From Microbotryum violaceum (lineage: Eukaryota): a stretch of DNA of 64,000 nucleotides. Below are positions 35,720-40,910 of this stretch, piece after piece. The stretch's first letter is position 1; every line of letters starts with the position of its first letter. The notes under the pieces were generated by a model, which worked only from the letters and a program-made list of their open reading frames with translations, searched no databases and had not been told where the DNA came from. The DNA is taken from contig CDLV01000005.1 in the NCBI GenBank assembly GCA_001244265.2, positions 2,480,001 through 2,544,000 of the forward strand, read 5' to 3'. Position numbers and translations under genes: made by a program.

Positions 35720-36691
35720 GGACTTGCGGATGGGGCTTATCATTGGAATTGGAACCAGCTACTCACTGAACTTGAAGAGCTCAGGATTTCGGATAGTCGG
35801 TACGATGCAGATTGCAATCGAGTCACAGACAAACAAGCAAAATAGTAAAGAGTACAGACGAACAAAAAATCGTCGACAGCATCAAAGACGAATCTGTGCA
35901 AAAATCAACGCATTCAGAACAGAAAGGCACTGAGACCAGTCAGCCATCAAAGTCTTCGTCAAGTGGATGATACGTTGTGATGCAAGAGAGGTGCGTTGGA
36001 TATGATAGGATCCGTTGGCCGTTCTTAAAAGCGGTTCATTCCACATCCCCTCAAGTACCTCGAAAGGCCCGGGGTCGGTTTTAGCATGGAACATGTTTTG
36101 TCGTCATATCCTTCTGTGTAGTTGTCGAAAATGAAGGCGAAGGTGGAGTAAATGCGAGAAAGCGGGGGAGGCTTACCTATAACAGAACTAGGGTCCTTTG
36201 TTAACCCAGGCATTTCCAAGATGGGGTAGGGTTCCTGAATGAGGCGCAAGGATAGAATGGTCGTGAAGAGTCAGTCATCGACATTCCAGAATGTGCATCC
36301 TCGCTATGCCATCTCCTTCTCCGTGGTTGGATAATGTATGTGGTCCAATTTCGCCTCAGTGTTGCTCTTTGGTTTATTGGCTAAAATAAGTGAGCGCGTG
36401 TCGAATCGGCATGGTCCTCTGGTTGAGGGAGGACCAACTACGACTGGGGCGACAATAAAGTACTCATCTCGCGCGAAGAGTGGACCACACACACCAACCG
36501 ACGAGAGAAGAAAGGAGGAAAAACATAAAGGGGAAAGGAGGCCGAAAACTCACTGAGATATGAAGAGACAACAATGCTCGGGTTAACGGGACACAAACCG
36601 AGTCGATACGAACACAACAGAAGAGATGAAGAAGTCGCTGGTTGAATTGCGGGAAGGGATGCAGAGGGGCGGACGAAGTCAAACGGCGATG

Positions 36692-38268
36692 TTACAGTCG
36701 AACGGCGTGGTGAATGACTTGCGGGTCCAGAAGTTCCTTCTGGGATTGAACCAGCTTGAGCTCGACCATCCTCAGCCTTCGCACACGCTCTTCGGCACTT
36801 TCCCCTTCGCGGGGGATGATGGCATCGGGGTAATGCTTAGCCAACCTCAGTGCGTTGGCACGCGTTCGAGCGAGGACACCTTGCAGGGAAGCGATCGCCA
36901 ATTCGACAGTGTAGGCGAGGGGAGACACGGCGTGTGGGGGGTGAGAGGCATTGGGGAAGCGACCCAAGACGAGGGAAGAGAAGACGTCGCCGACACCTTC
37001 GTAGTGTTCGGCCAACTCGGGGAAGGCGATGCCGAATGAAATGGATTCGATCGGGCCGTTAGCCGACGAAGTTGGTGTCATGGTCGAACCGCAGCAGAGC
37101 AAGAGCCGATCGTTGGGCGCTGCCGATTCGACAGTCACGTCGAGCTTGGCTAGCTCGTCGCGAGGCAACGACACGGCCGAGATGACGATGTTAGGGATGC
37201 GATACCGTTCGTGGAAGGTCCGCAGTGCCAAACGCAACGAAGCGGCGTCGAGAATCTTGACATCGGTGAGGAGCTCGGCTTCAAAGTAGTTGGGCGTTGC
37301 GCACGTCGCTTTGGGCATCAGCGACTTGTAGATGGGGATGACGGCTTCCGAGACGTAGATGCGACCGTCGTCACCCATGACGGGGTCGAGGACGTAGATG
37401 AGGTTGGGGTTGATAGACCGCAATCGGTCCACGGTGCGAGCGACAACGAGCAGCGCCTCGGCACCGGGTACGTAGCCGGTCAACAGATGTGACTGGCGAA
37501 GAAGCCCGTTGGCCTGGGGGTTGGCGTGGTGCCATCGTCAGCAATCTTGTGCTGCCTCTGCGAGATTGACAGGGATGGGCGTAGGCGACTCAAGAAACTC
37601 ACATCGAGTGCGCTCATGACATCCTCGAGATGAGCGGCGTCAAACTTGGATCCGCCCCATCTGCCGTAACCTATGAATTTGAGAACAGTCACAAGTCAGT
37701 CTTGACATCTCCCGATACTTGGAAAAACAAGGCAGGGAAATTACGCGAACCCTGAGTGAGCGATACGACAGAGGAAAACGACGAGGGCACACGGAGGCGG
37801 CATTCATGAGAAAGCGCGGAGAGGCGACCATGCAGTATATGCAAAAGTATGCAAGCAAGAGAAAATAAAAGAGGGAGAAGAGCGTTAGTTGGCTGAGCAA
37901 TGGTTCAATGGCGAGAGCACTGGAGCGCCAGGCGAGGAAAAGTCGAGGGCGACGTGGCCCTCTGCACGGCGATGGCAACCCAAACTTACCGTGTGGTTAG
38001 AGAATTCGACCGTGTTGGCCGCATCTACCTCCCAGCCCAAGAGTTGCAGGGGAAAGCTAGCCGATTTGTTGCCTGAGCAAAGGCAGGGCGCGCACACGAG
38101 GCAAAAAAAGGGGTCAGCGCCGACCGCTGGCTGCGAAGCGGCCAAAACGAAGCGGCGACCATGGAGCATGAACTCACCAACATAGCCTGCCACGACGTGG
38201 GACTGTATCGACAAAACTCGTTTATCGGGCACAACCAACGACGGCGTGCTGGCGGAGGAAGACGCCAT
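36692..38268 (-). CDS. BUD16: Pyridoxal kinase; exons 38268-38178, 38072-37990, 37751 (1 nt), 37670-~37603, ~37513-36692
   Basis: [79 protein letters not shown]. Confidence 0.93.
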
Positions 38269-38706
38269 CGCGGCGCCGCGGAAGGTGGAAGGCGTCGTAG
38301 CGCACCTCTCCGTGCGTGGTGAGCGTAGTGGTGTGCGGGAGGAAAAGAGCGCGCGCGCAGCCGCGCAGCCCCCACCCGCGCGTTACTCAAGCCGAGCCAA
38401 AGGCCGGAAGGGAAAAGAGGTCCAAGCGCAAGCCTCGGCAGCGCGTCGCTCAAAACACTCGCTGGGCCTCACGCTGGGCCAAAGTCAAAGCTGGCACGCA
38501 GGGAGCTGGGCCGTCGTGGCTTGGCGAGCCTTCGCAGCCAAGGCGCGTCGGAAATGGTGGCTCTTGCGGGCAGGTGCTGGCTGGGCTCTGACTTGTACTC
38601 TCTTCGTCATCACCCCCCTCAGCACCGTACCCGGTACTCGCCTCATTAATAATAAGCCCTCTTACTCTCGCCTCCCAATTCCACTCCCCGTATCAACTCC
38701 CTCCGT

Positions 38707-40910
38707 GATGGCCACTGCTTCCTCCTCCTCTTCCTCCTCGTCGCCGTTGCTGCCCGCTTCCGAGGCGTTGGCGCACCTCAAAACCTACGCGCAGCCCGAT
38801 GGCCTCTCGCTGCGTTCCTTGATGGACTCGCAAGAGCATGGAGGCCTGACCTACAACGATTTCCTCGTCCTGCCCGGCCACATCGACTTCCCTTCCAATG
38901 CGGTCAGCCTCGAGAGTCGTATCACGAGGAAGACGGTGCTCAAGACGCCCTTCTTCTCGTCGCCCATGGACACCGTCACCGAGACCGATATGGCCATCGC
39001 TATGGCTGTGAGTTTCCATCAAAATACACTTGACTTGGCTCCTCGACAAGATCATGGTGACTCACCTTGCTATTTACTTCTACACCGCCCTATTGGCTCT
39101 CCCAATGACGCCACTTTTTCCACGGCACTTTCGTCCCGACTCCTCTCGGCTCTCCGCGTACCGCAACGCCACAGTTGCTCGGCGGAGTGGGTGTCATCCA
39201 CCACAACCTTCCTCCTCAGATGCAGGCCGAGATGGTTCGCGCCGTCAAGAAGTGTGTCAAAAGTCCCCCACCCCCTCGGCGCGTCTGACTGAAAAGCTTT
39301 CATGAATTCAAGAACTGACCTTTCGCGTTCGCGTGCGTCAAGGTTCGAGAACGGCTTCATCACCGACCCCGTCGCGCTCTCGCCCAACAACACCGTCGCT
39401 GACGTCTGGGACATCAAGGACCGATTCGGATTCTGCGGCATCCCCATCACCGGTGAGTGCATATCCCATCGAGACCGTCCTGGGTCCTATCGCCCTTCCT
39501 TCCCGGCGCCACGTCAGGTCGAGCAGCCGCCCTAAAAATGATGTACAACCAACTCATTTCCTTCGTTCTGCCGAAATCGAGTTTGATCGCTCATTTACAA
39601 CCCATGTGGAAACATTGAATACGCCTTGATCGGCTCTACTGATTCTTCACCGTCGATGCTCATCGACAACACACAATACGCCTACCGCGCTCCGTTTCCT
39701 CATTGTTGACGGAGCACGCACTGACACAACAAAGGCAACGCGTCTGCATCCCTCGTTTGCAGAGACTGGAAAGCTCAACAGCAAGCTTGTCGGCATCGTC
39801 ACTGCTCGCGACATCCAGTTCCGACCCAACTCGGCAAAGCTGTCGACGGTCATGACCACTGGTGATGAGCTCGTCGTCGCCAAGTCCGGCGTCACCCTCG
39901 AGCAAGCCAACACCATCTTGCGTGACTCTAAGAAGGGCAAGTTGCCCATCGTCGACACCGAGGGCCGACTCGTCGCTCTGCTCGCGCGATCCGACCTACT
40001 CAAAAACAAGGACTACCCTTTGGCGTCCAAGAAGCCCGAGTCCAAGCAGCTCATTTGCGCCGCCGCCATCGGCACCCGTGGCCCCGACCGCGAGCGCCTG
40101 CGCTTGCTTGTCGAGGCCGGGTTGGACATCGTCGTGCTCGACTCGTCGCAGGGCAACTCGTCGTACCAAATCGAGATGATCCGATGGATCAAGGGCGAAT
40201 TCCCCGACCTCGAGGTCGTGGCCGGCAACGTAGTCACACGTGAACAGGCTGCGGCCCTCATCGACGCCGGTGCCGATGGTTTGCGAGTTGGCATGGGCTC
40301 CGGATCCATCTGCATCACGCAAGAAGTGACGGCCGTCGGTCGACCCCAAGGAACAGCTGTTTTCGCCGTCGCCGAGTTCGCGCGCAAGTTTGGCGTCCCC
40401 GTCATCGCCGATGGAGGTATCAGCAACGTAGGCCACATCGCCAAGGCGCTCGCACTCGGTGCCTCGGCCGTCATGATGGGCGGTCTTTTGGCCGGTACGA
40501 CCGAGTCACCCGGAGAGTTCTTTTATAATGAGGGCAAGCGGTTGAAGAAGTACCGCGGTATGGGCTCGATCGACGCCATGGACGCCGGAACGGTCAAGGA
40601 CAAGCGAGCCCAGGCGACCGCCGACATCGACAACGCCGCGACGTCGCGGTACTTCTCCGAAGGGGACGTCGTCCGCGTCGCGCAAGGAGTCGCCGGTGCC
40701 GTGCAAGACAAGGGCTCGCTGCGCAAGTTCATCCCTTACCTGCACGCCGGATTGCAGCACTCGTTGCAAGACATGGGTACGCGATCGATCGCCGAGATGC
40801 AAGATCGTGCTTATTCGGGCGAGTTGAGGTTCGAGCTGCGCACTGCGAGTGCCCAGGTCGAGGGTGGGGTTCATGGTCTGCACTCGTTCGAGAAGCGCCT
40901 CTTCTCATAG
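38707..40910 (+). CDS. IMD4: Inosine-5'-monophosphate dehydrogenase (3 introns)
   Basis: [30 protein letters not shown], catalytic loop [45 protein letters not shown]. Confidence 0.97.
39534..39646 (+). ncRNA. snR54: Intronic box C/D snoRNA, snR54/SNORD59-like (18S Am974-equivalent guide)
   Basis: Lies in IMPDH intron 3. Box C ATGATGT (39538-39544); guide CCTTCGTTCT (39560-39569) complementary to 18S AGAACGAAGG; D' CCGA (39571-39574); box D CTGA (39639-39642). Yeast snR54 is hosted in the IMD4 intron. Confidence 0.8.

Follow-up and report, generated by a model that had tools for sequence, protein, structure and literature searches.

The pyridoxal kinase gene and its interrupted glycine codon

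The stretch of DNA analysed here, called the window below, comprises 64,000 nucleotides (nt) deposited under Microbotryum violaceum (GenBank assembly GCA_001244265.2, contig CDLV01000005.1, positions 2,480,001 to 2,544,000), and it carries on the minus strand a pyridoxal kinase gene for which we propose five exons (38268-38178, 38072-37990, 37751, 37670-37603 and 37513-36692), the third being a single G. Exon 1 starts with the ATG at 38268 and ends in GTT G before GTGAGT, the donor of a 105-nt intron 1 (38177-38073; GTGAGT, CTGAC, CAG). Exon 2 (83 nt) ends in phase 0 with TCT AAC CAC ACG, encoding SNHT, and is followed by GTAAGT. Exon 4 (68 nt) lies directly behind CATAG and begins with GT TAC GGC AGA TGG; it is separated by an 89-nt intron 4 (37602-37514; GTGAGT, CTGAC, CAG) from the last exon, which includes the stop codon, encodes 273 amino acids with a Phos_pyr_kin domain (PF08543, E 1e-11) and shows 96% identity to the pyridoxal kinase of Microbotryum intermedium. 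The GenBank protein P0202 (Microbotryum lychnidis-dioicae p1A1 Lamole) includes the translations of exon 1 and of the last exon without a single difference, which makes the window DNA of that species or of a nearly identical strain. This protein, the GenBank model of the window's gene, passes the pyridoxal kinase equivalog model TIGR00687, for which it reaches 176.8 bits at a cut-off of 144.5.

The frame cannot be kept by joining exon 2 to exon 4, since a direct join of 37990 to 37670 gives 1064 nt with a frameshift and an early stop. Inside the gap, the order is CTCAG (to 37752), G (37751) and GTTCGC (from 37750), so that G37751 has a canonical AG acceptor on one side and a canonical GT donor on the other, both of them parts of complete introns. 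The upstream one, intron A (37989-37752, 238 nt), runs from GTAAGT to CTCAG, and the downstream one, intron B (37750-37671, 80 nt), runs from GTTCGC to CATAG and has a CTGAC at 37699-37695, 25 nt from its end. The exon ends, the CTCAG/G/GTTCGC order and the branch motif of the 80-nt intron had all been described in an earlier note on this DNA, and all are found where it placed them. With G37751 included as the first base of the glycine codon in SNHT-G-Y, the coding sequence has 1065 nt and 354 codons for amino acids and reads SNHTGYGRWGG.

When every AG-exon-GT/GC arrangement in the 319-nt gap was enumerated that restores the frame, contains no stop and leaves introns of at least 40 nt, 12 candidate exons were obtained, and HTGY results from only one of them, G37751 alone. 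The next simplest is a 7-nt exon GGTTCGC (37751-37745) with its donor GT at 37744-37743, which the earlier note had overlooked; it gives SNHT-GSR-YG, the form that the GenBank models of four Microbotryum species show. Larger in-frame candidates that begin at 37892 (40-148 nt) and a single T at 37919 were rejected, as they break HTGY and have no joint in the contigs described below. A contiguous SNHTGY, a motif that presumably has a role in substrate binding, is obtained as in the solved pyridoxal kinases only with the one-nucleotide exon. Human pyridoxal kinase (2f7k) and the Rhodotorula toruloides ortholog P0241 align without a gap over FSNHTGY. Taking these observations together with those that follow, we regard it as very probable that G37751 is a constitutive one-nucleotide exon of the Microbotryum lychnidis-dioicae pyridoxal kinase gene, placed between the complete GT-AG introns A and B.

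On the other side of the ATG, about 440 bp away, lies the first exon of an IMP dehydrogenase gene (38708-39010, plus strand; PF00478, E 2.5e-16). The two genes are divergent on opposite strands and have one promoter region in common.

Joints in contigs of a close relative

Four sequencing runs were compared, one of DNA (X2) and three guessed to be of RNA (X16, X17 and X18), X17 and X18 coming from an organism, called organism C, with about 97% identity to the window. The DNA contig of X2 covers 36600-38400 (1801 nt) with 0 differences and 0 gaps, X2 being possibly the source of the window's DNA itself. The loss of a base from a short run of G is, as general knowledge has it, a common type of assembly error, and the true gene could in principle have one more G at a junction or be broken as a pseudogene; we consider this hardly credible, because besides the X2 contig the same frame problem recurs in four Microbotryum assemblies and in the genomic loci of two further lineages (L001/L002 and L003, see below), and because a pre-mRNA-type contig of organism C crosses both 37990 and 37751 ungapped while the spliced product is in frame.

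In X17 and X18, introns 1 (joint 38071>38177, 105 nt skipped) and 4 (89 nt skipped) are absent at canonical ends, from which it follows that these runs hold spliced RNA. Contigs of both runs (depth 51.6 in X17 and 104.1 in X18) also lack 319 nt between positions 37671 and 37991 and have a single letter between the two sides. In X18 record 9, where exon 1 is also joined to exon 2, letters 140-220 lie on 38071-37991, letter 221 is unplaced and letters 222-291 lie on 37671-37602. This is read as exon 2 (83 nt, with a last base unlike the window's), followed by one additional base and then by exon 4 (68 nt), a reading that allows a one-base ambiguity at the two neighbouring joints. Going by the coordinates of the records, the mature contigs have exactly two bases between CACAC and GTTAC, which is one more than a direct join would leave, and neither seven more nor none. 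The unplaced letter in both runs suggests another base at position 37990 in organism C, the strand convention of the alignment table being uncertain; such a change would be synonymous in the threonine codon.

The extra base fits G37671, where the aligner placed it (the joint then ending TA..CC), and G37751 equally. The two origins of the base being indistinguishable in mature mRNA, the same contigs would also agree with a single non-canonical intron of 318-319 nt, either of the GT...TA type or with its donor shifted by one base, in which the extra G would be 37671 or a donor-side base and 37751 would not be involved. What speaks for 37751 is X17 record 7 (309 nt, depth 21.2), whose first 26 letters match exon 4 as far as 37667; the next four can be placed on either side, and the alignment continues from 37748 onward. 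The joint 37667>37748 skips 80 nt and, with the cut moved by +3, removes exactly 37671-37750 with CT..AC on the plus strand, that is, intron B with canonical ends, and joins position 37751 to 37670. Beyond the joint the contig follows 37748-37845, a replaced stretch and then 37913-38018, running without gaps into exon 2. In X17 record 7, intron B is removed and intron A is retained. Such an intermediate is what two canonical introns flanking a one-base exon would give, and it does not agree with one non-canonical intron. Furthermore, each half of the gap has its own donor, branch-like motif and acceptor, the AG-free tract before the internal CAG being 139 nt long in the window, 218 nt in L001 and 157 nt in L003, and the sequence around 37751 is conserved within intron sequence that is otherwise unalignable. 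A single non-canonical intron is therefore very improbable. The two-intron arrangement also agrees with the earlier note, which had held 37751 to be a 1-nt exon needed for the frame and had proposed looking for two intermediates, one of which, B spliced with A retained, is the form found here in the relative.

As evidence for an intermediate, X17 record 7 is good but single. Its 26 plus 4 letters equal k-1 for the 31-letter words of the index used to rank the contigs, and a short side of this length would be expected of a branch point in the assembly graph if the contigs were built with 31-letter words. In addition, the depths of the mature joint (51.6) and of the intermediate (21.2) add up to about that of the exon-2 contig (73.6), as expected for two paths of one bubble. 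Retention of intron A amounts to about 29% in this run, and none is seen in the contigs of another. The contigs of X17 and X18, from which rare variants drop out, contain no opposite intermediate, no 7-nt joint and no skipped joint. The earlier note's idea that skipping of the exon, with likely degradation of the transcript by NMD, might act as a switch on vitamin B6 salvage thus finds no support in them, no joint without the extra base having been seen. Run X16 gave four short contigs with a depth near 2.7, one of which still contains intron 4, and is uninformative on the joint.

In X17 record 7, 67 nt of intron A (37846-37912, minus strand) are replaced by 79 other letters. The interior of intron A diverges fast between close relatives, and the stretch 37743-37754 is kept.

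A conserved element and the public gene models

Three genomic loci with a protein identity of 73-74% came out of a metagenome scan; two of them, L001 and L002, are the same sequence, with exons matching the Rhodotorula graminis model P0010. The layout in L001/L002 is ACG/GCAAGC...CCAG/G/GTCCGCGT...CGCAG/GC TAC, with CCAG/G/GTCCGCGTGAAT...TGACTGAC...CGCAG/GC TAC as the internal detail in L001, and that in L003 is ACT/GTAAGT...CTCAG/G/GTCCGCGT...TTAG/GA TAT, with CTCAG/G/GTCCGCGTTAGC...TGCTGAC...TTAG/GA TAT inside. As in the window, the downstream exon in L001/L002 and in L003 alike starts without the leading G of the glycine codon, and a lone G stands between AG and GT about 69-84 nt upstream of it. 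The element CAG/G/GTYCGCGT is common to the three genomic lineages, which also answers the earlier note's call for a conserved AG-G-GT among relatives. In the window it is CAG/G/GTTCGCGT (37754-37743, minus strand) and contains the acceptor of intron A, the exon and the first 8 nt of intron B. The 12-mer CAGGGTYCGCGT is invariant at 11 of 12 positions across the window, L001/L002 and L003, while the rest of the intervening sequence is unalignable, and no other 12-mer of the window's gap recurs in both L001 and L003 with one mismatch or none; none of 300 shuffled triplets had any such shared 12-mer.

The codons flanking this element vary at synonymous sites (GGT/GGC/GGA, TAC/TAT and AGA/CGA). 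Since the element is nearly invariant while its flanking codons vary synonymously, its conservation looks, as far as sequence comparison goes, like constraint on an RNA signal rather than on coding. The second GT, at +7/+8, is conserved as well in the window, L001 and L003, and the 7-mers of the three lineages differ by a single T/C that swaps serine and proline.

Upstream of the internal CAG, the AG-free tract is rich in pyrimidine in all three lineages. In the window it covers 37892-37754 (139 nt, 73% pyrimidine) and lies downstream of the sole CTRAY branch-like motif of intron A, a CTAAC at 37888-37884, 133 nt before the acceptor. The nearest CTRAY is found 171 nt upstream of the internal CAG in L001 and 54 nt upstream in L003. 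The distances in the window and in L001, where the motif is likewise the only one, are unusually far for a fungal intron. Intron A in L001 (1516-1521) and L002 begins with GCAAGC and is of the GC-AG type, whereas it begins with GTAAGT in the window and L003.

The public proteins were compared at the same motif by means of 48 named genome-derived models of Microbotryomycetes, belonging to Microbotryum, Rhodotorula, Rhodosporidiobolus, Sporobolomyces, Phenoliferia, Meredithblackwellia, Pseudohyphozyma and unnamed isolates. SNHT-G-YG is present in two of them, both from R. toruloides (P0241, with an NP11 accession among its sources, and P0223). Twelve have GSR (the four of Microbotryum) or GPR (eight further named models), and the remaining 34 have VR, VS, ASC, VRC, NRG, longer inserts or skipped exons. 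The four GenBank models of Microbotryum, including that of the window's species, have 356 amino acids and read SNHT-GSR-YG, the 7-nt solution. Nine unnamed contigs over the joint are transcript-like, in the sense that the contig is little longer than its intron-free coding sequence, and eight of these have G (P0017, P0020, P0029, P0065, P0059, P0246, P0247 and P0249). Outside the Microbotryomycetes, every protein that shows the motif has SNH[TS], then G or A, then Y or F, with no insert.

The 7-nt exon 37751-37745 could in principle be the main form here or a minor isoform. Its use by a quarter of the named models (12/48), all four of Microbotryum among them, the conservation of its GT in three lineages and the GPR of the ninth transcript-like contig speak for it. 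However, no joint at 37745 occurs in X17 or X18, whose mature contigs have one extra base and not seven; G is found in 8/9 transcript-like contigs; no protein outside the group has an insert, human pyridoxal kinase being gap-free across SNHTGY; and the one T/C change (Ser/Pro) among the 7-mers, set against the synonymous variation nearby, fits a constraint on RNA rather than coding. Moreover, none of the 40 new proteins from a search centred on that ninth contig has GPR or GSR. The 7-nt exon is therefore an improbable explanation, less so than the single intron discussed above.

Several points weigh against G37751 as a constitutive exon and have to be set beside the evidence for it. The ninth transcript-like contig, P0060 (Joint Genome Institute, 331 amino acids on 1170 nt), from a more distant relative, reads SNHT-GPR-YG, which suggests that the second GT can serve as donor in one lineage or another, or under certain conditions. 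The donor of intron B, GTTCGC, is unlike the other donors of the gene (GTGAGT, GTAAGT and GTGAGT), its atypicality being judged against these and general knowledge; a crude donor-hexamer enrichment over the 64-kb window gave no clear consensus, with GTGAGT at rank 7, GTAAGT at 15 and GTTCGC at 110 of 195, and was dropped. Mature mRNA alone does not distinguish G37751 from G37671 as the end of a GT...TA intron, and the origin of the base at 37751 is supported by one intermediate contig whose short side, 26 letters plus 4 ambiguous ones, is below the 31-letter bridge rule. Since contigs drop rare variants, a minor isoform with the 7-nt exon or with the exon skipped may exist beside the main one. 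Finally, the RNA-type contigs are from the relative of about 97% identity and not from the window's species, for which no run is recorded as RNA, and X17 and X18 are only guessed to be RNA, though their canonical joints show spliced molecules. With the one-base exon of G37751 kept as the preferred reading, the window's own species presumably splices the gene in the same way as organism C.

Splicing order, origin and comparison with known one-base exons

The acceptor of intron A and the donor of intron B are one base apart and could not be occupied together, which implies that the two introns would be removed in sequence. We assume that this sequential removal takes place under intron definition. 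Intron B would go first, as in the single intermediate seen, so that the G is joined to exon 4. After removal of B, CAG/G(GT) would form an ordinary acceptor before a downstream exon of normal size, and intron A could then be removed, giving as the final product SNHT-G-YGRW, the motif of pyridoxal kinases throughout eukaryotes. This B-first order is probably the usual one. The same order has been reported for the 9-nt exon of potato invertase, as cited in a paper on Arabidopsis (PMC4674806). As to the conserved 8-base donor of intron B, our guess is that it might serve an extended or shifted pairing with U1, or the keeping of the second donor.

With regard to the origin of the arrangement, five other eukaryotic metagenome loci (L005, L006, L007, L008 and L071) have a phase-1 intron after the first G of the same glycine codon. 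In these loci, one short intron is laid out as ACN G/GT...AG/GN TAY, with a matching acceptor. The best hits are fungal proteins for L005, L006, L007 and L008 (identical to L044), and include green algal proteins for L071; in a further locus, L009, which has the same donor, the script found no acceptor for a phase-1 intron. The occurrence of a phase-1 intron at the same codon in other loci suggests that the position of intron B is old. Most simply, then, intron B would be the older one and intron A would have been gained later, one base upstream, in the lineage to the Microbotryomycetes, an origin drawn from few loci of uncertain taxonomy. The protein models of Mixia and Atractiella have G at this place, which would agree with one intron there or with no intron.

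A stwintron-like arrangement, which the earlier note had allowed as an equivalent, does not apply. A stwintron requires an interrupted splice signal; here, the donor and acceptor of each intron are already intact before splicing, no signal of one is broken by the other, and the G that separates them is exon sequence. Stwintrons, including a model of intron shift by 1 nt, have been described (Fekete et al. 2017, PMC5587772), and that paper discusses stwintron-type arrangements as a source of introns that lie one nucleotide apart in orthologs. The present case is like them in the consecutive splicing at nearly the same place in a fungal gene, and unlike them in that both introns are complete and the intervening base ends up in the mRNA.

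The locus is rather a further case of a known, very small kind, one-base exons being in print for APC11, CYP621A and Coprinopsis. The single-nucleotide exon of Arabidopsis thaliana APC11 was proven by base substitution in constructs (Guo and Liu 2015, PMC4674806). Here as there, the frame depends on a single base flanked by two GT-AG introns, and the GenBank annotation is wrong by absorbing intron bases; the authors of the APC11 report also propose intron definition, with one intron removed before the other. In APC11, however, the base concerned is an A, the gene is from a plant and the proof is by mutagenesis, whereas here the base is a G across a fungal class, known from sequence and contigs. 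The available part of the APC11 report mentions neither a splicing intermediate nor conserved flanks, whereas an intermediate with the downstream intron removed first is seen here.

The one-nucleotide exon of Fusarium CYP621A, confirmed with public RNA reads, is claimed in the paper describing it to be the second case overall and the first fungal one (PMC12940212, 2026). It is similar in its AG/G/GT core, in the completion of a glycine codon in a conserved motif, in an intervening sequence longer than usual, in its conservation among orthologs and in being mis-modelled in nearly all gene models. It belongs to a secondary-metabolism P450 of one genus of Ascomycota, and its G is the middle base of the codon. 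In contrast, the case described here is found in Basidiomycota (Microbotryomycetes), in a housekeeping salvage enzyme, with the G as the first codon base; its donor of 8 nt, GTYCGCGT, is conserved, and a second GT follows in frame 6 nt farther downstream. One-nucleotide exons are also known from another member of the Basidiomycota, Coprinopsis cinerea, where a long-read annotation counted 13 of them in 13 genes and omitted microexons break the gene models (PMC12230235); the available part of that report gives a genome-wide count with the genes unnamed and with neither conservation nor mechanism. Our literature search, which did not cover supplements, found no description of the present locus.

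What is notable in this locus is the breadth over a fungal class, the conserved flanks, the visible intermediate and the near-universal misannotation. By the reading preferred here, 46 of the 48 named public models of the enzyme in this group are wrong at the active-site motif, including those of the biotechnology yeast R. toruloides except P0241 and P0223, and all four of Microbotryum. The locus is thus a ready test case for gene finders and spliced aligners.

All these features could be joined into one wider reading, which we put forward as tentative and rather unlikely to hold in full: the one-base exon would be old across the Microbotryomycetes and would come from an intron gain one base upstream of an ancient phase-1 intron; the conserved, atypical donor element G/GTYCGCGT, dedicated to keeping the exon working, would enforce the B-first order; the second in-frame donor 6 nt on would give isoforms with G or with GSR/GPR; and slow removal of intron A would be a regulated step that sets the output of pyridoxal kinase. 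For the fungi concerned, the finding adds a housekeeping gene, one of vitamin B6 salvage, with a one-base exon common to a whole class, and the conserved donor element together with the intermediate hints at the order of splicing, a point left open in the Arabidopsis paper.
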